A stretch of DNA of 44,583 nt from Escherichia phage vB_EcoD_Over9000, in the sequence record NC_073079.1. The stretch is one strand, 5' to 3'. Each line of letters begins with the position of its first letter. Positions within the stretch are counted from its first letter, which is position 1. The notes beneath the pieces are model-generated. The model had not been told where the DNA came from, did no database searches, and saw only the letters and a program-made list of their open reading frames with translations. A program made the position numbers and the translations under genes. Of the stretch, positions 4,953 through 44,577 are shown in pieces.

Positions 4953-5064
4953 CCCGTCCGCAGACCCCGACGAGGATTTGATGATTGACGTGAAAAATAT
5001 GGAATGCGGGGCGAAGCTAAGGGCGCAGGTGCTGGAGTTGCAGCAAATAATTAAGGGGCCGTAA
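4834..5064 (+). CDS. o-spanin (Rz1-like outer-membrane lipoprotein)
   Basis: Starts inside the Rz ORF in another frame at ATG 4834 (RBS GAGG at 4821); signal peptide with lipobox LSAC; Pro-rich mature part; about 76 aa. Confidence 0.6.
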   Translation: MLRALTALIVVLMLSACGSSNAPLMPLTESALRPPCKFDSPSADPDEDLMIDVKNMECGAKLRAQVLELQQIIKGP

Positions 5065-5078
5065 TGGCCCCTTTTTCG
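5053..5078. terminator. bidirectional intrinsic terminator
   Basis: GGGGCC-GTAAT-GGCCCC hairpin (5055-5071) followed by TTTTT; sits between convergent Rz1 (+) and the reverse-strand gene ending at 5079. Confidence 0.7.
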
Positions 5079-5843
5079 TTAGCGCGGAATACCGCAAATC
5101 TCGTTGAGAGTTTTCACATCCAGCGCCACCGCCGTGGATTTTGGCTTGTCCGGGTAAGGGATGAATTGCTCAACTTCAGGCCATGCCTTAATCAGCTTCT
5201 TATCGGTATTGTGCATGTCCAGCACACCGGTAACGGTCAACTTGAATGCGTCATACTTAGCACGCAACTCACGGCGGGCCTTGTCGTTACGGTCAAGGCG
5301 CTTGCAGAAGTCATGATCTGCCGGGAAATCCGCACGGCAGCGTGGCTTATAGATCGGCAGCGATTTTCCGTCCTCGTCCACTTCACACACTGAAGCCAAC
5401 ATAACTGTCTCGAACCCCGGAACGATATCGCCGAGATCAGGCGAGAGCTTATTCATATATTTCTCTTCCCAGTATCCGCGATGTACGCGGTATTGGCGAC
5501 CGTCACCGCTCAAGGACAAGATGCGAACATTGCCGCCTGCGTTGATTTCAAAGGTGGCGTCGTAAACGCTGCCGATACCCTTCGGGCGATCTGTGTCATA
5601 GCGATATGTTGCCTTGTTGGTGTATACGCTGACGCTGTACATCTGCGACTGGTCGTCGCGGATTGCCTTGATATGCTCGCGGAGCGCTGCGAACGTGCGA
5701 ATGCCTTCCGGCATACAGTCCAGCGTGATTGCGTACGCCAGGTCGCGAGAGTCCATCATGATTGTTTTGGCTTCGGTAGCGATTTCGTGGTCGCGCAGGA
5801 TGTTAGCCAGGATCTGATTTTTAATGTCTTTCGTCAGTCTCAT
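5079..5843 (-). CDS. hypothetical protein (reverse-strand insert in head module)
   Basis: 254 aa ORF on the opposite strand to all flanking structural genes; ends at a bidirectional terminator (5053-5078); no motif recognised by eye. Confidence 0.6.
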   Translation of the reverse strand: MRLTKDIKNQILANILRDHEIATEAKTIMMDSRDLAYAITLDCMPEGIRTFAALREHIKAIRDDQSQMYSVSVYTNKATYRYDTDRPKGIGSVYDATFEINAGGNVRILSLSGDGRQYRVHRGYWEEKYMNKLSPDLGDIVPGFETVMLASVCEVDEDGKSLPIYKPRCRADFPADHDFCKRLDRNDKARRELRAKYDAFKLTVTGVLDMHNTDKKLIKAWPEVEQFIPYPDKPKSTAVALDVKTLNEICGIPR

Positions 5844-11509: not shown

Positions 11510-11823
11510 TTGAGGCGGCGCGACGCTTTTATGGCCCGCCGCCACCCTCCGAAGATTTAGCCGCGAGTTTATGGGGTGCGGCCCCTGAAGATGTTTGTCC
11601 GCCTGTTGCGCTATGGCCTGACAACGCGAAGATAGTCGCAGTCTTCACAGATTGCTCCACGCAATGGCGCACCGGTTTTGGTGGCGCATACGGCATCGAC
11701 TACGGCGTGCTGGAGTGGCTATTTAAGATGCACGGTATCGAAAACGAGCAGCGCGCGTTTAAAGATATCAAGCTAATGGAGCGAATCGCGCTTGATGAGA
11801 TGGCGCAGCAGAACCCCGCATAA
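11147..11823 (+). CDS. tail assembly chaperone frameshift fusion (GT-like), via -1 slip at 11500-11506
   Basis: The -1 frame is open from 11500 to TAA 11821-11823 with no ATG start (absent from the ORF track); encodes ...GIDYGVLEWLFKMHGIENEQRAFKDIKLMERIALDEM, resembling T-like chaperone extensions; slippery A_AAA_AAC at the junction. Confidence 0.5.
11500..11506 (+). promoter_or_regulatory. -1 programmed ribosomal frameshift slippery heptamer A_AAA_AAC
   Basis: Canonical X_XXY_YYZ heptamer 3 nt before the G-like stop codon; -1 frame is open for about 105 codons downstream. Confidence 0.55.
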
Positions 11824-12145
11824 TGAAGCGGGACAAGCGGGACGCCCCGTTTTGTCCCGCCCCTGTAAAACCGCATATCTAATCACTTTCATTGCATAAA
11901 CTCAAAGCGGGACAGGCGGGACGTCCCGTTTTGTCCCACCCCTGAAATGTGCATACCTATTCGAATTTCGTGCATAAAACAAACGGGACAGAAAGCGGGA
12001 CAAATGCGGGGCGGGACAAAGCGGGACAGCACCCCATCCCCACCAGTGCTGCCGCGGTTTTCAGCCGATCGGGACAGGCGGGACAAACCCCAGTCTTTCA
12101 GACTAGACGGGGGTCAACGGCCCCCCTCGTCTGAGACTGAATAAG
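11824..12145. repeat. iteron cluster (GCGGGACA boxes) plus conserved hairpin element, copy A
   Basis: About ten GCGGGAC(A/G) boxes, two ~80-bp tandem units (11826-11905, 11906-11985) each containing GCGGGAC-N10-GTCCC(G/A)C inverted repeats, then the ~50-bp element AGTCTTTCAGACTAGACGGGGGTCAACGGCCCCCCTCGTCTGAGACTGAATAA. Confidence 0.8.
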
Positions 12146-12207
12146 GTTTGTTTTAAAATCGCTGATACAATGTCAATCGGCAACTGCATAAAAAAGGGGA
12201 CTGCATA

Positions 12208-14850
12208 ATGGCAGATCAAGCGGCAGGCATCACGCTGAAGGCGGATGTCGCACAAATCAGAACGGCGAATACTGTGCTTGATTCATTCGCACAGAAATCC
12301 GAGAACACAGAAAACAAGGTTAAGAAATTAAACGACACCCTCGGCAAATCCAAAAAGGTGACGAGTGACGCCGCGGGCGGAATGGAGAAGCTGGCGACTG
12401 AATCGCAGCGCGCTGCCGATGGCATGACGAAACAGGAGCGACTTGCCAACAGGTTAGGCATGTCGACCAAAAACCTGGGCTTTGCCTCGCGTAACGCCGC
12501 ATTCCAGTTACAGGATATTGCGGTAACGCTTGAGATGGGTATGCCGGTGCACCGCGTTATGCTTCAGCAGTTACCACAGCTTACTGGGGCGTTCGGGGGA
12601 TTTGGTAACACGCTGCGTTATGTCGCGGGCGTCCTCGGTCCGGTAGGGATCGGCATTGCAGCACTAACGGCAACTTTAGGCGTAGGGGTGGCAATTACGT
12701 CCCGCGCAGAGAACCAGGTCTCAGCGCTTAACAAGACGCTGGCGCTGTCAGGTAACATTTCCGGCCTGACGGCAAACCAGATCCTGGTGCTATCCGAGAA
12801 CGCCGAGCGCATGGGCGGGTCGTTCCGCAAGACGCGTGACACAATCCAGTCGCTGGCGGCGGCGGGTGTGAAAGCGGGTGCGGACTTCGGCACGCTGGCG
12901 AAAGTGGTGAATGACTTTGCGAAGGTGTCCAGCCAGTCGATCGAGGATGTGGTCGCGGCGGTGGCAAAGTTGTCCACTGACCCAGTAGGCGGCTTGCGAG
13001 CATTGGCTGATAAGTATCACGTCGTAAACGAAGCGCAGATCCAGCAGGTACAATCCCTGGTGGATATGGGTCGTGAGACTGAAGCGGTGGCGCTGGCTAA
13101 TAAAACAGCCGCGGCGTCGTTCACCACCATGACCAACGATATTAAGTCCAACATGGGAACGCTCGAGCGGTCGATGAACGTCGTCACATCGGCAGCGAAA
13201 TCTATGTGGGATGCAATCCTGGATGTGGGCCGCGCGCAGTCCTCAAATGAGTCCGAGATGAAGGCGCGAGAGTCCTTACAGCGTCTGACAACGGCTTACT
13301 ATGCCGAGATGAAAGCGGTCAACGCTGCCGGTGGGGTAATGACAGAGGCGCAGAAAGCACGTATTAACATGCTTTACAGCGAACTGGTCGCACAGGAAAA
13401 AGTAGTGGCATCGCTCACCCTGCGTAACCGTGCAGAGCGAGACAACGCCCGCGCCGCGGACGAATCCGCGAAGGCGAACGAGGAGGCCAACCGCACCGCC
13501 CGTGACCGCGCCGCGTTCGAGAAGGAATACGCCACCAACGCTAAGAAGCGCGCCGACGAGATCGCCCGCCTCAATTTGCTGAATAAGCGCGGCGTGATCG
13601 ACGAGAAGGAACTGGCTGAGGCGGTGAAGCAGGTCAACGAGCGCTACAAAGACCCAGCACCGAAGAAGGCCGCGGCTGTTCGCGTGGATGCCGGTATGAA
13701 AATGCTGGAAGTCGCACGGAGCGAACTGGCCCAGCTTCGAGAATCCGGCAAGCAGATCGAAGCCAACGCGTCTACGCAGACCCGCACGCAACGCGCTCAA
13801 GCGGCCTTAAACAAGCTGATCGCCGACAATGAGCAGTTAATCGCTGCGAGCAAAGAAAGAGCGCTAACGGCAGCAGAAAAGCAGCAATTAGTCGAGTTCG
13901 GGCGCGTGAAGGAAGTCCGCGAGCAGATCGTCGAAGAAGCCAAATTGCTGGATGCGAAAGAGCAGCAGGTTAAGGCGCACGCGCAGATCGATGCCTTCGT
14001 TAAGAACCAGAACGCCGAACTAAAAGCCACCGCCGCGGGGTATGCGCTTTCCACTCGCGAAGCGGCAAACCTGCGCGAAGAATTGCAGCTAATTGACCGC
14101 CTGAAGCGGGTTGGCGCTAACGATACCGATATTGACAAGGCGGTGTCTAAGCTGCGAGAAGTGCAGGAAGCACAGACCGGCGCTAACGCCTCGTTATGGG
14201 ATGGATTCAGTCGCGGGCTTAAGGATAGCGTGGATGAAATGGGTAACGGATATACGCAGATGGCGTCTCTCACGAAATTCACATTCAGCGCTATGCAGGA
14301 CACGATGAACGAGTTTTTCGAGACTGGCAAGCTGAACGCAAAGGATATGGTTAAGTCCATCCTGAGCGAATTAATCAAGCTGGCTACATCGCAGGCGTTC
14401 AAGTCCATCGTTAGCGCTTTCGGGGGCGACGGCGGCAAAAACGGATTGTTCGGCGCTATCTTCTCCGGCCTCACTAAGAATGCGGACGGCGGAGCGTACG
14501 CAGGGGGCAATCTCGCGGCCTATTCGGGGCAGGTGGTAAGCCAGCCAACCTTTTTCAGTTATGGCGTCCAGGCGTTCGCTAAGGGCGCAGGATTGATGGG
14601 CGAGGCTGGTCCCGAGGCCATCATGCCGCTGAAGCGCGGGCCGGACGGGAAACTGGGCGTTGCCGCGTCTGGCGCAGGCGGTGGTATGGTCGTGACGACT
14701 AACGTTTACACGGGGACCGGTAAAACGGATACCAGTGTCAGCGGGCCGGATCCCCGTACCGCGCAGGCGTTCGGCAAGCAAATCACCGAGGCGGTGAAGG
14801 CCGAGATCGTGAAGGCGACGAAACCGGGTGGTGTACTTTACAAACGATGA
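12208..14850 (+). CDS. tail tape measure protein
   Basis: 880 aa, long Ala/Glu/Lys/Gln-rich helical region, central hydrophobic segment (VLGPVGIGIAALTATLGVGVAI), Gly-rich C-terminus; position after G/GT. Confidence 0.9.
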   Translation: MADQAAGITLKADVAQIRTANTVLDSFAQKSENTENKVKKLNDTLGKSKKVTSDAAGGMEKLATESQRAADGMTKQERLANRLGMSTKNLGFASRNAAFQLQDIAVTLEMGMPVHRVMLQQLPQLTGAFGGFGNTLRYVAGVLGPVGIGIAALTATLGVGVAITSRAENQVSALNKTLALSGNISGLTANQILVLSENAERMGGSFRKTRDTIQSLAAAGVKAGADFGTLAKVVNDFAKVSSQSIEDVVAAVAKLSTDPVGGLRALADKYHVVNEAQIQQVQSLVDMGRETEAVALANKTAAASFTTMTNDIKSNMGTLERSMNVVTSAAKSMWDAILDVGRAQSSNESEMKARESLQRLTTAYYAEMKAVNAAGGVMTEAQKARINMLYSELVAQEKVVASLTLRNRAERDNARAADESAKANEEANRTARDRAAFEKEYATNAKKRADEIARLNLLNKRGVIDEKELAEAVKQVNERYKDPAPKKAAAVRVDAGMKMLEVARSELAQLRESGKQIEANASTQTRTQRAQAALNKLIADNEQLIAASKERALTAAEKQQLVEFGRVKEVREQIVEEAKLLDAKEQQVKAHAQIDAFVKNQNAELKATAAGYALSTREAANLREELQLIDRLKRVGANDTDIDKAVSKLREVQEAQTGANASLWDGFSRGLKDSVDEMGNGYTQMASLTKFTFSAMQDTMNEFFETGKLNAKDMVKSILSELIKLATSQAFKSIVSAFGGDGGKNGLFGAIFSGLTKNADGGAYAGGNLAAYSGQVVSQPTFFSYGVQAFAKGAGLMGEAGPEAIMPLKRGPDGKLGVAASGAGGGMVVTTNVYTGTGKTDTSVSGPDPRTAQAFGKQITEAVKAEIVKATKPGGVLYKR

Positions 14851-17619: not shown

Positions 17620-20600
17620 CGATTATCTACGACGTCACAGGGCATAAAGGCGGCGGCGGCAAACAGCACACCCCACAGGAGACGCCAGATAGCCTGCATT
17701 CGCTGGCTAAAATCCGCATCTTGCTTGCGCTGGGGGAAGGGGAATTCGAAAGTATTACCAGCGCCAGCGAATTGCGGCAGCGTGTTTACCTGGATGGAAC
17801 GCCGATCCAGAACGCTGACTTGTCCGAAAACTTCCCTGGCGCGCGTGTGGAGTTCCGCCCCGGCACACAGCACCAGGATGTGATCCACGGATTTTCAGCG
17901 GTGGAAAGTGAGCAATCTGTCGGCGTAAAACTGGAAAACGGTACGCCGTGGGTACGCCAGATTAACGATACCAGTCTGGACGCCGTTCGCATTCGCATCG
18001 GAATTCCGGCCCTGTACACTAACGAAGATAATGGCGACCTGGTTGGCGGACGCATTGACTATAAGATCGTTGTGTATACGGATAACGCCGACCCGCGTGA
18101 GTTCAGATTCGCCGCCGTTGGTAAAACAATGTCGCTGTATGAGCGCGACCACCGCATCGAATTACCGCCGAACGTGAATACCGGCTGGCGCGTGGAGGTG
18201 CACCGCATAACGGCAGACTCCACATCGGCGAAAGTGGTTAATGATATCCGGGTGCAGTCCATCACTGAGATTATTGACGCCCGCCTGCGTTACCCGCTAA
18301 CCGCGCTGTTGTTTGTGGAGTTCGACGCCAAAGCGTTCCAGAACATCCCGCGCGTGTCCATCAAGTGCAAAGGTCGCAAAGTTCTAATACCGAACAACTA
18401 CGACCCGATCAATCATACCTATTCCGGGGACTGGGACGGCACGTTTAAACGCGCATGGACGGATAACCCTGCGTGGCACTGGTACGATATTTGTATTACT
18501 GAGCGCTTCGGCCTCGGTCGGCGTATCAAACCGCAAATGCTAAACCGATACGCGCTCTACCAGATTGCGCAGCGCTGCGATCAGTTGGTCAGCGACGGCA
18601 ACGGTGGTCGAGAAATCCGCTTTAAGAATGATATGTACATTCAGTCACAGACGGATGCCTGGACCGTGCTTAAGGATTTAGCCGCCATCTTCGCCGGAAT
18701 GACCTGGTGGGGCAACCAGATGTTTAATATCGTCAGTGACCAACCGGTCGCAGCAGTGTCGCACACTATCACCAACGCCTCGGTAATTGATGGGCGATTC
18801 GACTACGCATCTGGTAGCCAGAAAACGCGCTATTCCACATTCGCGGTAGCATACGGCAATCCGAAAAACCACTATGAAGATGCTATCGCAACGGGGCAAC
18901 GTGTCGAACTGGTACGCCGCCATAAGATTAACCGTCTTGATATTACGGCGATCGGCTGTACGCGCGAGTCAGAAGCGCAACGCCGGGGGCACTGGGCGCT
19001 AATCTCAAACCAGCTTGACCAGCAAGTTAGTTTTAAGGTGGGCATGGAGGGGTTATTCTTTATTCCTGGTAGCGTAGTCGCGATCGCGGACACAAACATT
19101 TCTGGCGGATTCGAGACTCGTGGCGGTCGCCTGTTGTCAGATCCGGGCACGCGTACCGTGCTGAACACGGACAGCGAAATCACGTTCCGTCCTGGCGATA
19201 AGTTCCTGGTTCGCACCGATAGCGGTAATGTGGAGACTCGCGAGATCGCCAGCGTCAACGGCAACAAGGTTACGCTAAAAACCGCACTTGACGCCGACCC
19301 GATTCCAGACCAGCCGTTTTGCGTTGATGGCGACGATATCCAGTTGCAAAAATTCCGCATCACCGACCTGGAATATGACGACTCTACTAGCACTTTCTCG
19401 GTGCGCGGGATTGAATACAACGATAGCAAATATGATGCCGTTGATAATGGCGCGCGCCTTGACCCAGGCATCTTTACGCAAGTGCCTGACGGGGTAATGA
19501 AGGGGCCGGAATCCGTGACCATCACCCCGTCGCAGATTTCATCGCAAGGGCAGCTAATCACCAACGTGGATATTGTATTCCCTCCGGTGAAGGATGCCGT
19601 GGTGTATGAAATCCAGTGGAGGCGTACCAGCCTTCAGAATATGGAAATCCAGTGGGGTAACGACTGGGTGAATATCCCACGCACGGCGTCGAATGGGGCG
19701 CACATCCCTAACGTGTTCTCCGGTAACTACCAGGCACGCGTCCGCGCGATCGGTATGGGCGAGATTTCATCTCCGTGGGTGTCGTCCGCCATCACGCCGG
19801 TGGAAGGTCGTCTCGGTGGGCTTAACGCACCAATCATCACCAACGCTATTTCGGGCCTTCACCAGATCTTGTGGAAGTGGAACCACAACAACGCCGCTAC
19901 TGATATCTCGTACACCGAGCTTGAAGTGCGCAAGACCGGTGAGACTGAATGGAAATTCCTTACCAACGTCCCATATCCGGGGGCGGAGTATGCGCAAACG
20001 TCGCTGGAGTTCGGCATATACCAGCAGTTGCGCGCCCGTGTAGCGGATAAAATCGGCAACCTGTCGGACTGGTCCGCCCCGTTTGAAGGCCAGGTGAGTG
20101 ACAAAGTTGACGAGTATATGAAGGGGCTTGATGACGAGTTCTTGACTTCCGAGGATGGTAAACGCTTCCAGGAAGCAATCAACACGATCCCGCAAGGCAT
20201 TTATGAGTCAATGCTCACCGACGCCCAGCAGCTATTCAACGCCCGCGCCGAGTACAAAGGGATTTATGCGGAAATCAAGGTAGCGTATAACGTGGCGGCG
20301 GATGCCCACCAGGCGGTGGCGCAACTGGAAACGTTGATCGGCACTCGTCTTGACGATGCTGAAGCGGCAATCCATACGTTGCAGACAGCGCAGAGTACGC
20401 AGGAACAAGCGTTCGCCCAGTACCAGCAAACTGTCGCCGCTAAGTTTTCGGAACAGGAAGCCGCCATCCAGTCAGTGCAAACGGCAACGGCTGACGTAGC
20501 TGGCGCGCTGGCGGAGTACAAGACCCAGGTCGCGGCACAGTTCGGGCAGCAGTCCGCCGCAATCGAGCAGAAGATGACGTCCACGTTTAACCACTCCGGT

Positions 20601-30475: not shown

Positions 30476-32767
30476 TTACTTCCTGTACCTGTACATAATG
30501 TCGCCTTCGGCGGCAAGTGGGAAGCCTTTCGCCCAAATAGGCAGGTCGCACATCAGCGCGCAAAGCTCCTCTGTCGTGTAGTCGTCGGTGTCCGGCACTT
30601 CTGTGATCAATTCATCATGCACCGATAGAACGATTTCATAGCCCGCAGCTTCAACGCCAGGCATTGACCAGGCGAGAATATCACGGCACAACGCCTGTAC
30701 TATGTTCTCCGTCAGTTTGCCGCCGTAGGTATACTGGAAGCCCCACTGGCGCGTCGTCTGATTCTCGCCCTGATATTTAATGCGGGTGCTGGTGCGTTTC
30801 TTGCCGGTATCTTCGTCGATCTCGGTCGTCACTGACAGCGCAATGCCTGGATAACTCATAATACGCCCCGACGGCAACTCAATTTTCAACCACCACCCCG
30901 CGGCGTTCGGGTCGTCGCGTTCCTCGTCGAAGGTTGGGTCATGCTTCGCCTTCGTGCGGACTATCTTGAGCGCTTTCTTACCATCCGGGCGAACGTTCGC
31001 GCCAGCCCAGTACGCTTTGCCAGGATTGCGGATTGCACACAACACCGCGTCCTCAAGCTCGGCCCAAAAGGCTACCGTCTTCGGGTGAGCCTCGCGCCAC
31101 ATGCGTTTAATCGCATCACACGTAAGCCATACGTTTTTCGGCAGTATGTAAGTCGGGCGCTCGTCCTTCTTGCCAGGCTTTGGCGGTCGCTTCGCTTCGT
31201 TAATGCGGGCGTACTCATAACCCCGTTTAGCCGCTGCCCAAATGTGATCGGGGAATGTGCCCTTCATGACGTCCGCCATCGCGTAAAGGTCGAGGCCCAG
31301 GTTTTTAGCGAACTGCAAGAACGCCGCGACGCCGCCACCATAGCCCAGTCCCAATTCACACGCCTTACCGATCTGGCGCAAGTCTTTGCGGTTGGCTTTA
31401 ATGTAGTCCGGGTCCAGGCCGAACATCTTACCGGCAGTCTCACAATAGATATCGCGACCGGCCCTAAACACCATTAGCGCGGTTTTCTCGCCCGCGATCC
31501 AGGCAAGTCCACGCCCTTCCACGTTGGAGTAGTCCGCTACGACAAACTTCTTGCCCTTAGCCGGGATAATGCACCCGCGAACGGTAGAGGCTGTTAGCTT
31601 AGATATGTCATACGCCCAGTGCGCGGTCCCGCGTAACAGGGAATTGATGCCGTTGGTGAGCATGTGCGACCGGACCCAAAAAGCAACGTCGCTCTCGCCT
31701 TCGCGGCGCTTAATCTTCCCTTCGTGATCGTCGCTATACTCGCCGCGTGCCAGGTTTTGAGGCTGGAAGCCTTTACCCGCCCAGCGCAGCGTGCGCTTTG
31801 CGCCGCCATACTGAAGACACCCACGGCGGCGACCATCTGCGGATAAGCCGTTAACTAGCGGATTGTACTTAGTCGATGCCGTTGATGACGCACCGAGGCG
31901 CATTTCGATAAGCGCTTTGCCTTCGTCGGGGAAGTCCGGGTCTTCAAGCAGGTCGTTAAGTGTGGATTTCTGCGCGTTGTGGATTGTGAACGCCGGGGCG
32001 ATATCACGCAGGATTGGCAGGAAGTCATTGCCTGTCAGTTTACCGCCAAATCGCTCCCAGGCTTCCTCCTTCAATTCTTCCTTATGCGCCTGCACCGCTT
32101 TGATCGCGGCGCGCGCCAGGTCAACGTCCACATAGAAGCCGCGGTCATTGATCAACTGGTCAATAAGCAGGATTTCGTCTTCCTTCGGCGTGTTACCCCA
32201 GTCCGGTATGCGCCAGTATACTTCCCTCATCGCTATAATATCCAGCGCGGCATAGCGCAGGAATTTAGCCCACTCCTCGGGGTGCGTCTCGCGCGTGTAG
32301 CGGCGGATTTTGTATGTCTTAGGGGTTGGCTTACAGAATCGTTTGATCAGCGCCTTGCCCGCCTTATCCTTCGCGTGCTCTGCGTCGACGCCCAACACCT
32401 GGCACTGCATATCGAGGCTACCCGGCAGCGCGTGTCGAAAGGCCATAATCATGGTGTCTTCGATCTGGCACACCGGCAGATCTATACCCCACTTCTCGCG
32501 AATAACAAGGCGGTCAAACAGGAGGCCGTTAGCCATCACTATTTTTGCTTTCTTGCGGGATACACGGCGGAGCGCCTTGCGCAGTTCACGCGGCATTGTT
32601 GGGGATTCAGTGGCATCCCATGTCTGCACGCGGCCCTCGTCGATGGCGTATGTGCAAATCATAATCTCGGTGGTTGGGTGCTCTGCGTAGGCGTACGCCC
32701 CAACCTTCTTTAGGTCCACCCCGCTAAATGTCTCGGTGTCGAGAAACAGACGTTCGAAGTCTTTCAT
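30476..32767 (-). CDS. DNA polymerase I (family A) with 3'-5' exonuclease domain
   Basis: 763 aa; exo motifs FLDTETF and YAALD; polymerase motif A VVADYSNVEGR, motif B RKDLRQIGKACELGLGYGGG, motif C VLSVHDELI. Confidence 0.9.
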   Translation of the reverse strand: MKDFERLFLDTETFSGVDLKKVGAYAYAEHPTTEIMICTYAIDEGRVQTWDATESPTMPRELRKALRRVSRKKAKIVMANGLLFDRLVIREKWGIDLPVCQIEDTMIMAFRHALPGSLDMQCQVLGVDAEHAKDKAGKALIKRFCKPTPKTYKIRRYTRETHPEEWAKFLRYAALDIIAMREVYWRIPDWGNTPKEDEILLIDQLINDRGFYVDVDLARAAIKAVQAHKEELKEEAWERFGGKLTGNDFLPILRDIAPAFTIHNAQKSTLNDLLEDPDFPDEGKALIEMRLGASSTASTKYNPLVNGLSADGRRRGCLQYGGAKRTLRWAGKGFQPQNLARGEYSDDHEGKIKRREGESDVAFWVRSHMLTNGINSLLRGTAHWAYDISKLTASTVRGCIIPAKGKKFVVADYSNVEGRGLAWIAGEKTALMVFRAGRDIYCETAGKMFGLDPDYIKANRKDLRQIGKACELGLGYGGGVAAFLQFAKNLGLDLYAMADVMKGTFPDHIWAAAKRGYEYARINEAKRPPKPGKKDERPTYILPKNVWLTCDAIKRMWREAHPKTVAFWAELEDAVLCAIRNPGKAYWAGANVRPDGKKALKIVRTKAKHDPTFDEERDDPNAAGWWLKIELPSGRIMSYPGIALSVTTEIDEDTGKKRTSTRIKYQGENQTTRQWGFQYTYGGKLTENIVQALCRDILAWSMPGVEAAGYEIVLSVHDELITEVPDTDDYTTEELCALMCDLPIWAKGFPLAAEGDIMYRYRK

Positions 32768-35531: not shown

Positions 35532-35719
35532 TATTCCACCCTTGAAAACTGAGCAATGTAATAATCATGTTCAACATTGGCCCGCTTAGCGGCATTGTTC
35601 ATGGTAGCCGCCAGTCCTCGGGCTTGCATCCAGCAGCAATTCCAGTTTTGATTCATAACAATTTCCGGTTGCTCGTCGCCGGTAATACGGCAACGAAATA
35701 AAACAAAGAAGATAGCCAT
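35531..35719 (-). CDS. small hypothetical protein
   Basis: 62 aa ORF tightly packed between neighbouring reverse-strand genes. Confidence 0.3.
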   Translation of the reverse strand: MAIFFVLFRCRITGDEQPEIVMNQNWNCCWMQARGLAATMNNAAKRANVEHDYYIAQFSRVE

Positions 35720-35971
35720 TTATTTTGTCTCCCAGCGGTCAATTGTTCTTGCTTCGGATGCAACTGCGAAGCGAACATATTCCAGATTGGAATCCGCCCA
35801 AATATAAAAATCGGGGTTAGTAAAGGTGGTGCGCTTAATTTGCGCGGGGGTGTTGCGGCGTTTATCTATTACGGCAACTCGCGACTGAAAGCTGCCGATG
35901 CGTTCGAACAGCCAATAGTACGGGCGCTGGTCGCGGGAGTCCACCGCCTCGATTAGCGTGAAGCGTGCCAT
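35720..35971 (-). CDS. small hypothetical protein
   Basis: 83 aa ORF; start 10 bp downstream (in transcript direction) of terminator 35982-36011. Confidence 0.4.
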   Translation of the reverse strand: MARFTLIEAVDSRDQRPYYWLFERIGSFQSRVAVIDKRRNTPAQIKRTTFTNPDFYIWADSNLEYVRFAVASEARTIDRWETK

Positions 35972-36535: not shown

Positions 36536-36771
36536 GGTATATCTCCGATTGGTTAAGTTTAGGTGTCGGCAGTTAACTTCGTCGGTGGCCTTAACATATT
36601 GCCAGGTTACGCGTTCTCCCGTTCGGGTAGTGGACCTGGTTATATAATCACGGTTGGGAATCCTGACACTTCGATCCGGCCCCTGCGTTGCCCCTCTCCA
36701 GTTTGCGTCCTGCATCCTGTCGACGGGGTGAATATTAGATTGGTTGCATGTGGGGTGTCAACAACTAATTT

Positions 36772-36807
36772 CAAAAAAAAAGCGCCGAGGCAAAATGCGG
36801 CGGCGCT
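36772..36807 (-). terminator. orphan intrinsic terminator (reverse strand) in the early intergenic region
   Basis: GC-rich hairpin (36781-36807) followed on the reverse strand by nine T (A-run 36773-36781 on +); no reverse-strand ORF upstream of it. Confidence 0.5.
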
Positions 36808-36877
36808 AACCAATAAGAGACAATGAGACGGGAATTATTATTACACGCGTGCGCGCCCGTTTCAATATCCAAAGAAT

Positions 36878-37277: not shown

Positions 37278-39515
37278 ATGAGCTTGATTAAATTCGCTGT
37301 AACAAAACCCGCTAAAAAAGGCGAAAAAGCCAGGGCGGAAAACTTCCAGATGACGACCGATGAGTTTTTCGAATTTATCAAAGATGCGAAAGAAATCTCC
37401 TCGGTGCATATCAACAAGACGGAAGATAAAGCCGAGTACGCGCGCCGCAAGCGTAAGGCCGATGGCATCGTGGCGTATACCAGTGACGGATTGCGTCGTA
37501 AGACCAGTGCGGTGGACCGCTCGATCCTGTTCTTCGATATCGACCGTACCGACACCCGCACCTTACGCCGCTGCCGTAAGGCGTTCATCGACGCGGGACT
37601 GGAGCACGTCTTCCACACCACCACCGGCGACCGCCACCCGCTGAAGGGCGGCACGCGTTGCGCCCGTTTCCTGGTGCTCACTGACAAGCCTGTACCGGCT
37701 GAAGACCTGGGCCGCGTCCAGTATGCACTATTACACCAACTGGGTCTGTCAGATGTGGCCTTCGACGATTGCACGAAAGACACAAACCGCCTGATGTACC
37801 TGCCACACCAGCAGTCTGTTATTAAGTGCCACTACGGCAAGCGTGCCCGCGTCCGTCGTCTGCTTCGCCTGGCGGATAAGTTGGGCGTGGAGAAGGAGGA
37901 AGTACGCCGCGAGCTTACCCAGGGCGACGACGCAGTGGCAGACGGCATTCTGGACTGGTGCTTCCAGGCAGGATTCGAGGAGTTATCCTCCGGTCGCGGT
38001 TATGAAGTGCCGTGCCCGAACGAACATCTGCACAGCGGCGAAGGGTCGACGGCTATCATGGTCAAGGATGGCGAGATCCGTTTCAAGTGTATGCACACCG
38101 GCAACGAGTGTTGCTCGGAACTGAACAGACACCAGCACCTAGCACTACGTCTTATCGGAATCCCGGACCACCTGAACGTCGAACCGCACAACATGTCACG
38201 TAAGCAAATCGCCGCCATCCTGCCAGGTCTGGACGACGAGGAAGTGGAATCGTGCTATGCGCATATAGTTGATGCGGTCGGTGACGGCGACGAGTACGGC
38301 GTATGTACCGACGCGGACCTGGATAACGAACCGGTCGCACTGTTCAGTAAGCACGACCCGATAATCGAGGGGTTGATTAACTTTAAATCGACCTGGTACA
38401 TGGCTGGCGAGTCGAACATCGGTAAATCGTTCTACGTGCTTGGCCAAATGGGCGCGGTTGCCGCAGGTATTCCGTTCGGCGGTGCGAAGGTCGTCCAGTC
38501 GCATTGCTTCTATTTCGATGCGGAAGGTGGCGAAGCCTCCAACCAGCGTAAGGAAGCATTGCAGATCAAATATGAGCACGATCTCGACAAGCTGCACATT
38601 ATCGACCTGCAATCTCGCGGCTGGGATATCACCAGCAAATCCGGCTTGCGTGAAGTTATCAGCTTCATCAACCGCACCGCTAACGGCGAACCGGTTGGCC
38701 TGGTGGCGTTCGACTCACTCAACCAGACTGTTGCGCTGCGGTCCGCCGATGCAAAACCGTTCGACGAGAACAACGCCAGCGATATGGGTGAAGTGGTCAA
38801 AGCGCTGAAGGCCATTGCGGAAAATACAGGCGGCAGTGCGGGCGTCATCCACCACCCGGCTAAAGGTGCAAACGGCAGCAGATCCCCCCGCGGGTCCGGC
38901 GCGCTGCATGGTGCTGTCGATTCTGCGTTCTTCCTGGAGCAGCCTGACGACAACCAGCCAGGACAACTGAACCTGTATCACGAAAAGGCGCGTAATGGCA
39001 TCAAGCAAGCGCCGCGCGGCTTCGTCCTGCTCAAGTGCAAGGTTAAGGTTGATCTCCGCAAGTCCGAGGCGTTCGAAGCCCACCAGTCCACCAGCACTGG
39101 TCCTGACTTCGGCGATGTGGTTGCCGGTTGGGACGTAAAGCCAATCGCATCCACGCCACGCGACGAGACTCTTTACCTCGTACCGGTCGCCCTGGCGCCG
39201 TTCGCTATCGAACAGGCAAAGGCCGCTGGCAAAGCAGCAGTTAAGGAAGAGAACGCCGCAGGCCCGCGCAACGAAAAAGAGAAAGTGCTTTATGCGGCAC
39301 TGGAAAAACTGATGGAAGATAACCCGGACCATACCGGATTCAGTAAATCGGCAATTGTCCGCCAGGCGGGACTGGCGAAAGGTGGCACCTCGACGAAGGC
39401 AATCGACGATATGGTCGAGCGCGGAGTGTTAGGTTTTTATACCGATCCGCGCACCGGGGCCATCTATGGGTCGTCGAATATCGTCATCAAAACGAATATA
39501 CCCATCACGCTTTAA
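37278..39515 (+). CDS. DNA primase / replicative helicase (AAA_25 / DnaB-RepA-like ATPase with N-terminal primase-like domain)
   Basis: 745 aa; Walker A GESNIGKS and Walker B LVAFDSL in C-terminal half; Cys/His cluster CPNEHLH...CMHTGNECC in N-terminal half; followed by an ori-like repeat region. Confidence 0.75.
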   Translation: MSLIKFAVTKPAKKGEKARAENFQMTTDEFFEFIKDAKEISSVHINKTEDKAEYARRKRKADGIVAYTSDGLRRKTSAVDRSILFFDIDRTDTRTLRRCRKAFIDAGLEHVFHTTTGDRHPLKGGTRCARFLVLTDKPVPAEDLGRVQYALLHQLGLSDVAFDDCTKDTNRLMYLPHQQSVIKCHYGKRARVRRLLRLADKLGVEKEEVRRELTQGDDAVADGILDWCFQAGFEELSSGRGYEVPCPNEHLHSGEGSTAIMVKDGEIRFKCMHTGNECCSELNRHQHLALRLIGIPDHLNVEPHNMSRKQIAAILPGLDDEEVESCYAHIVDAVGDGDEYGVCTDADLDNEPVALFSKHDPIIEGLINFKSTWYMAGESNIGKSFYVLGQMGAVAAGIPFGGAKVVQSHCFYFDAEGGEASNQRKEALQIKYEHDLDKLHIIDLQSRGWDITSKSGLREVISFINRTANGEPVGLVAFDSLNQTVALRSADAKPFDENNASDMGEVVKALKAIAENTGGSAGVIHHPAKGANGSRSPRGSGALHGAVDSAFFLEQPDDNQPGQLNLYHEKARNGIKQAPRGFVLLKCKVKVDLRKSEAFEAHQSTSTGPDFGDVVAGWDVKPIASTPRDETLYLVPVALAPFAIEQAKAAGKAAVKEENAAGPRNEKEKVLYAALEKLMEDNPDHTGFSKSAIVRQAGLAKGGTSTKAIDDMVERGVLGFYTDPRTGAIYGSSNIVIKTNIPITL

Positions 39516-39534
39516 CGGCGACCGATGACGACCT

Positions 39535-39654
39535 GAAAGATTAAATTTTGCGCGCATTGGTTGCCGATATGGGAATCCCCATATCGCTAAAAGATTAAAT
39601 TTTGCGCGCATTGGTTGCCATTTTGAGTGTTTTTAGTCGGTCGCATTGGTTGCC
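39535..39654. repeat. direct repeats with intervening inverted repeat (ori-like region downstream of primase/helicase)
   Basis: 31-bp direct repeat (G/A)AAAGATTAAATTTTGCGCGCATTGGTTGCC at 39535-39565 and 39589-39619, partial third copy CGCATTGGTTGCC at 39642-39654; hairpin GATATGGG-AATC-CCCATATC between; AT-rich stretch follows. Confidence 0.7.
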
Positions 39655-39689
39655 GTGTAGTGTAAATATAATGAATAGTTATGCAGTTT

Positions 39690-39870
39690 TATTGCATAAA
39701 GTAAGCGGGACAAAAAGCGGGACAAACTTAGGGCGGGACAAAGCGGGACAGCACCCCCGTCCCGCCCCGGATGACGCGGCTTCCAGAGGAGCGGGACAGC
39801 GGGACAGCACCCCAGTCTTTCAGACTAGACGGGGGTCAGTGGCCCCCCTCGTCTGAGACTGAATAAAATC
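39690..39870. repeat. iteron cluster (GCGGGACA boxes) plus conserved hairpin element, copy B
   Basis: About 190 bp roughly 85-90 percent identical (by eye) to 11975-12145, including the same ~50-bp hairpin element with only loop changes (TCAACGG vs TCAGTGG). Confidence 0.8.
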
Positions 39871-40021
39871 CGGGATTGCAAAATACACGGCAGCATGACG
39901 CGAAGTGCGGTCGCGGATGAACTAGGCAACCAATGCGAGTTACATTATGCTGAGTGAAAAATGCGGTTTGCAGTCACAGCTGATAGCGATCAACTTTTTC
40001 ATGCGCGTGATTAATATTGGT

Positions 40022-40050
40022 TGCATCCAGCCGGGCACCCTGCTATATTG
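40022..40050 (+). promoter_or_regulatory. sigma70-like promoter upstream of gene 40078
   Basis: TTGCAT (40022-40027), 17-bp spacer, TATATT (40045-40050); followed by palindromic element TTGGTTGCACACCAA and RBS AGGAGGG. Confidence 0.5.
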
Positions 40051-40077
40051 GTTGCACACCAACAGGAGGGCGGAACA

Positions 40078-40256
40078 TGAAAACCGAAATGGTTAATAAG
40101 CGCGAAATCAAGATCGGCGATACGGTAGTACACAACGGGGAGCTTCGCACTGTGTGCAAGCGAGCGTTTAGCATCGATGAATTTATGGGCCTGCTACTTT
40201 GGGGCGACAGCTATCGTTTAGGGCATAAACTGGTTGAGAGGGTTACGGAACTATGA
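40078..40256 (+). CDS. small hypothetical protein
   Basis: 59 aa from ATG 40078 with strong RBS AGGAGGG and a sigma70-like promoter (40022-40050). Confidence 0.5.
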
Positions 40257-40579
40257 AAGCGATTATCTGGAATTACGCAATGGCTATGGCGGCGGCGCAA
40301 GAAGCGGCGGAGTTCGCCGGTGAAGGAGCGGAAGCGGTCGAAAGACTATCGGCAGCGTGGTCCGTTGTTCGCGTCACGCAGCAGGCCATCGCCTGTATGC
40401 TTGAGCGCCGCTTCGACACGATGGCGGAGATCCAGCCGTTGGCGAACGCAATACAGGACTACGCGCTTGCATTTGCCCGTGAGCGCCTGGCGTATCGCTT
40501 CGGGGTCGGTGAGACGGCAGCGACAAACATCGCCCGGATTAAAGCCCAGCGCGAACTATTCGCCCAGCTTGCGAAATAA
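40253..40579 (+). CDS. hypothetical protein
   Basis: 108 aa Ala-rich ORF; ATGA coupling with upstream gene. Confidence 0.5.
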   Translation: MKAIIWNYAMAMAAAQEAAEFAGEGAEAVERLSAAWSVVRVTQQAIACMLERRFDTMAEIQPLANAIQDYALAFARERLAYRFGVGETAATNIARIKAQRELFAQLAK

Positions 40580-40588
40580 GGGGCCAAA

Positions 40589-40861
40589 ATGGACCGCAGA
40601 CGAGCTAAACAGCTTTCGTGGCATATTCCACTGCATTGCATACGAATATGGGCTAAGAATGCGATTGATGGTGATTCTGTGTTCTGGAGCTATCGCGACG
40701 ATGTGAAGCCACTAACGCAGACTCGCTATCTGCACCAGTTCGCCAGGGAGCACGGATTCGCCGTCAAAACATCCTTGCAACCAATTGGCATCCGTATTAC
40801 ATTACGCCGGAAGCCCGCCGTTGAGCGGGTAGGCAAACACTGGAGACTGAGCAAATGTTGA
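40589..40861 (+). CDS. hypothetical protein
   Basis: 90 aa basic ORF. Confidence 0.45.
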   Translation: MDRRRAKQLSWHIPLHCIRIWAKNAIDGDSVFWSYRDDVKPLTQTRYLHQFAREHGFAVKTSLQPIGIRITLRRKPAVERVGKHWRLSKC

Positions 40862-42065: not shown

Positions 42066-42102
42066 ATAGTCCCAGTGAGCTAAAACTTACTGGGACTTTT
42101 TT
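42066..42102 (+). terminator. possible intrinsic terminator / attenuator before holin-like gene
   Basis: AGTCCCAG ... CTGGGACT inverted repeat with 14-nt loop followed by TTTTTT; the ATG at 42103 follows immediately. Confidence 0.35.
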
Positions 42103-43297: not shown

Positions 43298-43326
43298 AAG
43301 CCCGGAATTATCCGGGCTTTTTTATT
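43298..43326 (+). terminator. intrinsic terminator after lysis cassette
   Basis: AGCCCGGA-ATTA-TCCGGGCT hairpin followed by TTTTTTATTTATT. Confidence 0.8.
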
Positions 43327-44540: not shown

Positions 44541-44577
44541 AAGCCTCCCAGCCTGCCGATTTGGTGGGCTTTTTTGT
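44541..44577 (+). terminator. possible intrinsic terminator at window end
   Basis: Imperfect GC-rich inverted repeat (AAGCCTCCCA ... TTGGTGGGCTT) followed by TTTTTTG after the phosphoesterase gene. Confidence 0.4.

Follow-up and report, generated by a model that had tools for sequence, protein, structure and literature searches.

Four described replication systems come closest to the locus analyzed here. In P4, two separated sites, ori and crr, contain identical short iterons to which the alpha protein binds; crr lies beside the alpha gene and consists of two long direct repeats that carry iterons. The oriV of the IncQ replicon RSF1010 contains iterons, an AT-rich tract and hairpin-forming ssi sites where the primase starts, and is served by RepA, RepB' and RepC. 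In the Bacillus phage SPP1, oriL and oriR contain the same initiator-binding repeats beside AT-rich DNA, one site located by the initiator gene and the other among late genes. P4 alpha unites primase, helicase and a C-terminal DNA-binding domain of the winged-helix type within one polypeptide (PMC2777425). The origin of the Sulfolobus plasmid pRN1 has a stem-loop just downstream of ORF904, which encodes a primpol-helicase-winged-helix protein; this stem-loop is needed for replication, stays functional when moved, and has reported counterparts 3' of such genes in bacteriophages (PMC4234260). Here, we analyze the gap that follows the primase-helicase gene of Escherichia phage vB_EcoD_Over9000 (NC_073079.1), henceforth termed region B; the window, i.e., the whole 44,583-nucleotide stretch analyzed, is a complete Dhillonvirus genome. 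We put at about one half the probability that the phage's own primase-helicase uses region B as a replication origin or as one of two origin-type sites, and at these odds regard an iteron-type origin coupled to its own initiator as the best single explanation of the locus.

Region B ends at a 59-codon open reading frame (ORF; 40077-40256). A first-pass annotation had described these 560 bp as non-coding and as a candidate origin and regulatory hub, listing a 31-bp direct repeat, an inverted repeat, an AT-rich stretch, an iteron cluster, a conserved hairpin and a sigma70-like promoter. The AT-rich stretch, the iterons and the hairpin are all present about where they had been placed (Table 1), and together with ACGGCAGCA they form a conserved core of ~210 bp. 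Alignment of region B with positions 11800-12210 shows that this core, at ~39673-39865, recurs at ~11950-12145 within the tail-gene cluster (region A), in the common order of AT-rich DNA ending in TGCATAAA, four copies of GCGGGACA, an inverted copy, a spacer, two GCGGGACA and a 49-nt hairpin. The locus is therefore not the single site that had been proposed, and its real core is the iteron/AT-tract/hairpin module with its region A twin rather than the 31-bp repeat. Within the core, the description as non-coding stands, whereas the first ~30 nt of the gap are coding in relatives. An 84-codon ORF with a TTG start (39602-39856) runs across the repeats and was rejected as a gene: across 31 distinct copies of the module from IMG/VR contigs, the core's longest ORF shifts in strand, frame and length, which is why we treat the region as non-coding.

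The iteron GCGGGACA occurs 16 times in the genome against 2.1 copies expected from shuffles, and 13 of the 16 lie within two clusters. In region B, the six direct copies and the inverted one, with spacings of 12, 16, 10 and 8 nt, match the pattern by which we recognized iteron-type origins (at least three to four short direct repeats at roughly helical spacing), and the motif is found in both orientations as well as in perfect palindromes (GCGGGACGTCCCGC in some strains). Directly to the left of the first iteron lies the least stable duplex of the genome: by nearest-neighbor energy, the 40-bp window from 39663 ranks first across the 44.6 kb, with -43.0 kcal/mol compared with a mean of -59.2 kcal/mol. 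The hairpin lies ~300 nt past the primase-helicase stop codon, and its exact sequence is confined to Dhillonvirus-type contigs, which usually contain it twice. Throughout the 31 module copies, iterons and hairpin stems are essentially invariant while spacers and the hairpin loop vary freely.

Region A repeats this architecture and adds two upstream units of ~79 bp, each with a palindrome made of four iterons. Its equivalent tract is moderately unstable, falling only within the top 1.5% of the genome for duplex instability. In the relatives Shemara and VLCpiS11a, the tail chaperone and tape-measure genes abut, leaving no gap at the place of region A.

The position of the repeats is conserved more widely than their sequence. 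We compared relatives whose primase-helicases are 45-70% identical, and in every related lineage examined with a long non-coding gap directly after the primase-helicase gene, a short-repeat cluster occupies it. This gap of 430-650 bp is kept in Dhillonvirus, a Klebsiella Guernseyvirinae phage, Cornellvirus and six metagenomic lineages. Seven further lineages share the layout, six with other repeat types and one with GCGGGACA, and in each a long imperfect hairpin and one or two copies of ACGGCA[AG]C come after the array. The AATAGTTATGCA of the AT-rich tract is also kept in Cornellvirus Shemara despite its different iterons. The Klebsiella phage VLCpiS11a (L132) contains two modules (35660-35935 and 5036-5280), both with TTGCGAGT, so that the two sites of one genome change specificity together; the second, termed A2, is flanked by head-morphogenesis and spanin genes, and its hairpin resembles that of the first in shape but not in sequence. 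In hairpins of the VLCpiS11a type, henceforth the sister lineage, compensatory double changes affect 9 of the 29 predicted pairs. Judged by these compensated pairs, and by the variable loops and fixed stems of Dhillonvirus, the hairpin structure is under selection. A separate observation concerns Salmonella phage JD01 (L135), which has at 19500-19840 a ~168-bp tandem repeat whose units each contain copies of ACGGCAA and a GCGCTTGCC-GTAA-GGCAAGTGCG hairpin. This repeat lies where a large intergenic region separates the replication operon from the late/lysis operon, and it may correspond in Jerseyvirus to the module described here.

The octamer ACGGCA[AG]C, of which ACGGCAGCA contains a copy, is also the most over-represented oligonucleotide of the genome as a whole, with 51 copies (40 on the + strand and 11 on the - strand), where synonymous-codon shuffles predict 8.1 and 2.6. 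The copies are spread over all three reading frames at about one per 0.9 kb (e.g., 4742, 13867, 20875, 38872, 39887, 41497 and 42652), and the octamer is frequent too in VLCpiS11a, Shemara and XY2. Its strand bias, considered as a pointer to fork direction, reaches strength only within the late-gene block of this genome and is less marked in relatives. The octamer may serve the primase as a recognition site, or act as an orienting signal of another kind.

The candidate initiator is encoded directly upstream of region B. Pfam recognizes only AAA_25 (PF13481, the RepA helicase family) at residues 357-531 of the primase-helicase, and searches of the Protein Data Bank (PDB) with the single sequence and with a profile returned only a marginal match to RepA (1G8Y). 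Fold prediction places an AEP PrimPol fold (RepB'-like) with a Cys/His cluster at residues ~1-340 and a winged helix at residues ~665-745, so that a primase, a helicase and a DNA-binding domain appear to be combined in one polypeptide. Across six lineages with four iteron types, identity amounts to 47-60% in the winged helix and to 68-78% elsewhere in the protein. The two GCGGGACA lineages have SKSAI(V/L)(R/K)Q as helix 2 of the winged helix and the two GTGTGGCA lineages have SRRAIL, a pattern that is no more than suggestive of the winged helix as the reader of the iterons. In relatives, the protein runs nine codons further (...ITLSATDDDLKD*), which accounts for the ~30 nt of the gap that are coding there, and ends in an acidic tail, SATDDDLKD; the D-D-L of this tail hardly varies among 39 homologues. 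In the present genome, two extra bases within 39511-39545 (cttTAAcgg) create an early stop with loss of this tail, reflecting either a real truncation or a sequencing error.

From these observations of anatomy, duplication, positional conservation with iteron turnover, duplex instability and a predicted three-domain protein, we infer a replication function, together with all of the binding and priming steps set out below. We favor an origin because the iterons lie far above chance in two clusters and the genome's least stable 40-mer abuts them; because gap and repeats stay at the primase-helicase gene while the repeat sequence changes between lineages; because that gene product is modeled as AEP primase, RepA-like helicase and winged helix; because no change with iteron type is seen in the only other DNA-binding protein nearby; and because the pRN1 origin provides an experimental precedent. 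Initiation would begin with the C-terminal winged helix of the primase-helicase binding the GCGGGACA iterons, whereupon the bound protein would oligomerize and open the neighboring AT-rich tract, allowing the RepA-like helicase ring to load on the opened DNA. With the DNA unwound, the single strand could fold into the 49-nt hairpin, to be recognized by the AEP primase domain as ssi hairpins are by RSF1010 RepB'; the domain would then begin a primer near the conserved ACGGCAGCA, which the phage family-A DNA polymerase (encoded at 30476-32767) would then extend. Region A, which has no comparably unstable tract, could serve as a further origin in the manner of SPP1 oriR, or as an enhancer in cis in that of P4 crr.

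A broader proposal, which we advance tentatively and hold to be rather doubtful, is that Dhillonviruses and part of the Guernseyvirinae share a two-site, self-contained system for starting replication. In this system, the AEP-primase/RepA-helicase/winged-helix protein would read fast-evolving, lineage-specific iterons and prime at the conserved hairpin; the cassette could be copied to new intergenic sites (region A; A2 of VLCpiS11a), and ACGGCA[AG]C would be the lagging-strand priming site of that primase. It is similarly speculative that the conserved hairpin in such a system represents a phage counterpart of the IncQ ssi sites, with the functions fused into one protein.

Table 1. Features of the analyzed window by position and strand, followed by the repeat types found after the primase-helicase gene in each lineage.
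Feature	Coordinates	Strand	Sequence or remark
AT-rich tract, candidate DNA-unwinding element	39655-39704		TATAAT 39667-39672; AATAGTTATGCA 39674-39685; TTGCATAAA 39692-39700
Iteron array, GCGGGACA	39705-39806	+	direct at 39705, 39717, 39733, 39743, 39791, 39799; inverted 39759-39766
49-nt imperfect hairpin	39813-39861	+	CAGTCTTTCAGACTAGACGGGGG-loop-CCCCCCTCGTCTGAGACTG; RNA -28.4 kcal/mol, z = -4.6; DNA z = -3.6
ACGGCAGCA	39887-39895	+	25-50 nt past the hairpin in all lineages; copy of the genome-wide over-represented octamer
Primase-helicase gene, candidate initiator	37278-39515	+	cut 9 codons before the conserved acidic tail
Region A, second module copy	11825-12207	+	between tail assembly chaperone and tape-measure genes
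Region A iterons	11984, 11995, 12011, 12021, 12070, 12078	+	
Region A palindromic double-iteron units	11828-11860 and 11907-11939		
Region A hairpin	12091-12139	+	same as in region B
Region A conserved extended -10	12163-12171	+	TGATACAAT, after the hairpin
33-nt direct repeat	39533-39565 and 39587-39619	+	copies 97% identical
Partial third repeat copy	39642-39654	+	CGCATTGGTTGCC
Palindrome between repeat copies	39565-39586		CGATATGGG/CCCATATCG, 9-bp stem; DNA fold z = -5.4
Direct CGCATTGGTTGCC boxes (three)	39553-39565, 39607-39619, 39642-39654	+	members of the dispersed TTGGTTGC motif
Inverted CGCATTGGTTGCC box	39925-39938	-	closes the core on the right side
Promoter-like site for the downstream operon	40017-40055	+	TTGCAT 40021-40026, 17 nt, TATATT 40044-40049; read by eye
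109-aa protein, sigma-70 region-4-like/HTH_23 helix-turn-helix	36938-37267	+	Pfam HTH_23 and Sigma70_r4_2; directly upstream of the primase-helicase
Repeat in Dhillonvirus and L016/L143			GCGGGACA
Repeat in L140, L141			GTGTGGCA
Repeat in L139			GTGTGCCA
Repeat in L142			GGTGCCA
Repeat in Klebsiella phage VLCpiS11a and L018-L024			TTGCGAGT
Repeat in Cornellvirus Shemara			GGGGGAGA
Repeat in L138			GTGCGGAA

The long direct repeat and the palindrome, which the first-pass annotation had counted among the origin features, take on a different meaning. Both exist, the repeat extending over 33 nt instead of 31 and the palindrome having one base pair more in its stem than the eight described. The second repeat copy and the palindrome, however, constitute a single 54-bp tandem duplication (39566-39619) that is polymorphic, being found in this genome and in five other sampled Dhillonvirus region B copies (L002, L003, L010, L012 and L013) and missing from the rest; it cannot, for that reason, be essential. 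What this strain-specific duplication carries is a dispersed box of promoter/operator type, not iterons. The conserved part of the repeat, CGCATTGGTTGCC, is one form of the dispersed TTGGTTGC box, which has 17 sites in the genome, 6 of them in region B, and at least 9 within the 6.6% of the genome that lies outside ORFs; ATTGGTTGC occurs 13 times against 0.5 expected. The sites (6227, 22342, 25395, 27062, 27079, 30021, 33832, 33903, 36740 and 39557-40055) are mostly intergenic. At 40017, 27079(-), 30021(-) and 36740(+), the box is followed after 18-19 nt by a TAnnnT hexamer, its TTGCxx part falling where a -35 would be, and boxes are often found at the -35 place or overlapping -10/+1. This geometry identifies TTGGTTGC as a promoter/operator-type motif and not an origin iteron.

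The TTGGTTGC box is kept in relatives whose iterons differ, and in L016/L143 the boxes are at the same place in reversed orientation. The 109-aa helix-turn-helix protein encoded just upstream of the primase-helicase was considered as a reader of the iterons and ruled out: lineages with four iteron types differ hardly at all in its C-terminal ~60 residues, and with its DNA-binding half unchanged it cannot set iteron specificity. It is instead probably the reader of the TTGGTTGC box, a candidacy based on the equal conservation of the two. The flanking TTGGTTGCC boxes and the promoter at 40021-40049 would form a separate layer that controls transcription into and out of the origin, read in all probability by this conserved small helix-turn-helix protein and host RNA polymerase. 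The sigma70-like promoter claimed earlier can be read by eye and is overlapped by two ATATTGGTTGCA boxes (40014-40025 and 40045-40056), yet its -35 hexamer matches the consensus at only 3 of 6 positions, and a consensus promoter and terminator scan of 39000-40600 called no promoter, its terminator-like sites lying solely on the - strand inside the helicase gene. Given the TTGGTTGC boxes and this promoter, "regulatory hub" was a fair label.

Region B has been noticed before in an orthologous genome. A megablast search with 39300-40300 retrieved 156 phage records at 90-95% identity, nearly all of them Escherichia Dhillonvirus, with HK578, JL1 and SO-1 among them. In Sodalis phage SO-1 (GenBank GQ502199), where regions A and B are orthologous at 93% identity, the depositors annotated both as repeat regions with mutual similarity; the entry for region A, "sequence similarity with region B", is descriptive only in the part displayed. 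Our literature search found no paper on Dhillonvirus origins, regions A/B or the GCGGGACA iteron, and no mapped origin for Dhillonvirus or related Guernseyvirinae.

Several observations weigh against an origin at region B. Neither region A nor region B contains a DnaA box (TTATCCACA, up to 1 mismatch), and host DnaA boxes are present in many iteron-type origins, albeit not in all. In Jerseyvirus and Kagunavirus, which have primase-helicases of 32-45% identity and another gene order, the primase-helicase gene is not followed by an iteron cluster, so that not all of the wider family shares the arrangement. The winged helices of the two GCGGGACA lineages are 56% identical, no more than those of lineages with differing iterons; as overall identity does not group by iteron, the link between protein and iteron rests on few residues. 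The genome comprises structural genes on the + strand (1-24.2 kb), DNA-metabolism genes on the - strand (24.2-36.7 kb) and a rightward block from 36.9 kb to the genome end, and the cumulative GC skew, which had been named as a check on the origin, goes up over + strand genes and down over - strand genes. Its turns at ~24 and ~36-37 kb coincide with these switches of gene orientation and not with 39.8 kb; being confounded with transcription, the skew is uninformative about that position and gives no independent origin signal. Region B is, moreover, the boundary between the early rightward operon (helix-turn-helix protein, primase-helicase) and the small, lysis and late genes. All five modules observed, namely A and B of Dhillonvirus, B and A2 of VLCpiS11a and B of Shemara, point in the direction of transcription, and the sister-lineage hairpin accepts G-U only on the sense strand at two pairs, where C-G has become U-G; module orientation and sense-strand G-U together fit a role at the RNA level. 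The origin interpretation of the first-pass annotation is partly supported, namely by the iterons, the melting-prone tract and the initiator-like gene, while the long repeat with its palindrome and the idea of a single site do not fit. A side observation concerns the divergent control region at 36732-36865 (-), where the cumulative skew has its minimum: it contains two of the three best sigma-70-like promoters within the scanned 24.6-44.6 kb, both facing left (TTGAAA-17-AATAAT and TTGACA-18-TAATAT), with a TTGGTTGCA box within the spacer of the second.

The main rival explanation, a transcription or RNA element at the early/late boundary, accommodates several of these points, and we consider it possible without thinking it probable. 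The hairpin would then act in the transcript, as a site for RNase III-type processing, a 3'-end stabilizer or a cis-acting antiterminator like HK022 put RNA. A regulator specific to the lineage would bind the iterons and act on the promoters downstream of each module, with region A as a repeat of the device in the long late operon. Consistent with this, a promoter-like site does follow the module at both places in this genome (TTGCAT-17-TATATT in B and the extended -10 in A), region B precedes the small genes and the lysis genes (the latter including the SO-1 gp56 lysozyme), and a ~20-bp imperfect stem is within the size range of phage RNase III sites. Strong canonical intrinsic terminators on the + strand (42068-42097, 43298-43319 and 44550-44570) lie between region B and the terminase genes, so that late transcription from the region B side would need separate promoters or read-through control, the latter therefore being useful. 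The hairpin itself is, however, not an intrinsic terminator, as no T/U tract follows it (GAATAAAATCC comes next) and the terminator scan made no call at 39813-39861. Rfam 15 covariance models gave no match at the gathering score over the whole genome and none even at E <= 1 within 39400-40200, and the folding energies of the hairpin are equal for both strands, such that strand asymmetry provides no signal for RNA over DNA, the two G-U pairs of the sister lineage being the sole hint. Iterons that occur in both orientations and as perfect palindromes point to a protein that binds double-stranded DNA; region A has no evident promoter directly upstream of its iteron-hairpin core; and no candidate for a lineage-specific regulator was found, the nearby helix-turn-helix protein being invariant across iteron types. 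A purely transcriptional role also leaves the least stable DNA beside the iterons unexplained. The two readings are in any case compatible: many origins are embedded in transcription units and activated by them.

It is improbable that the iteron clusters serve another two-site DNA-protein function, be it centromere-like or in condensation, in packaging recognition, or as a decoy or sponge for a host or defence protein. That one short repeat forms two dispersed clusters would suit such a role, as would the differing placement of the second cluster, among tail genes in Dhillonvirus and head genes in VLCpiS11a, which suggests that its precise location is unimportant. On the other hand, no partition genes were noticed in annotated relatives, and while pac sites are usually in or beside the terminase small-subunit gene, the distance from that gene is 11-12 kb for cluster A and ~5 kb for cluster B. 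None of these functions predicts the tight, conserved link to the 3' end of the primase-helicase gene and to the unwinding-prone tract. That the module is a selfish or neutral duplicated repeat without function, kept by recombination between the A and B copies, is very improbable, since its copying into non-homologous intergenic sites in different lineages and the strain-level duplications inside region B are outweighed by signatures of selection, i.e., a layout kept across genera with the iteron sequence wholly replaced, compensatory hairpin changes, and invariant stems with free loops.

Dhillonvirus and Guernseyvirinae are common phages of E. coli, Salmonella and Klebsiella that are used in therapy and in studies of defence systems. 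If the origin model holds, a compact cis element and one protein may suffice to start replication, which would be useful for phage engineering and in work on replication-targeting defences; closely related phages would also offer a natural series of specificity switches between initiator and iteron, and the self-priming replicons of the IncQ, P4 and pRN1 families would be connected with phage replication. Should the transcriptional explanation hold instead, the module would be an unrecognized late-gene control device in these phages.

Among the described systems, the locus resembles that of P4, whose alpha protein has the same three-function layout as the Dhillonvirus primase-helicase. Both have two separated clusters of one iteron, here A and B (and likewise two in VLCpiS11a), and region A is built similarly to crr. 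The proteins differ, an AEP PrimPol and a RepA-like helicase (PF13481) standing here in place of the DnaG-type primase and superfamily 3 helicase of alpha; in addition, a conserved long hairpin belongs to the module here, and the two sites are 17-28 kb apart compared with ~4.5 kb in P4. With IncQ RSF1010, the phage shares the helicase family (PF13481/RepA, by a weak sequence match to 1G8Y), yet three functions that reside in separate RepA, RepB' and RepC are fused in one protein. The reader of the iterons would accordingly be a winged helix on the helicase rather than a separate RepC, and each module has one hairpin, always on the same strand, whereas RSF1010 has two ssi sites on opposite strands. 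pRN1 resembles the locus in having a stem-loop downstream of a primpol-helicase-winged-helix gene and in that structure rather than sequence is kept among relatives. Its helicase, however, is of superfamily 3, with only PF13481 (RecA-fold, RepA-like) found here, and its stem-loop spans ~100 nt without an iteron array, in contrast to the 49-nt hairpin, prominent iterons and AT-rich tract of region B. SPP1, finally, likewise has two origin-type sites per phage genome, but its initiator G38P is a separate origin-binding protein that works with a separate helicase loader and helicase, and a conserved hairpin has not been described for it. The module thus combines origin features of P4, IncQ, pRN1 and SPP1 with an initiator of different domain make-up.

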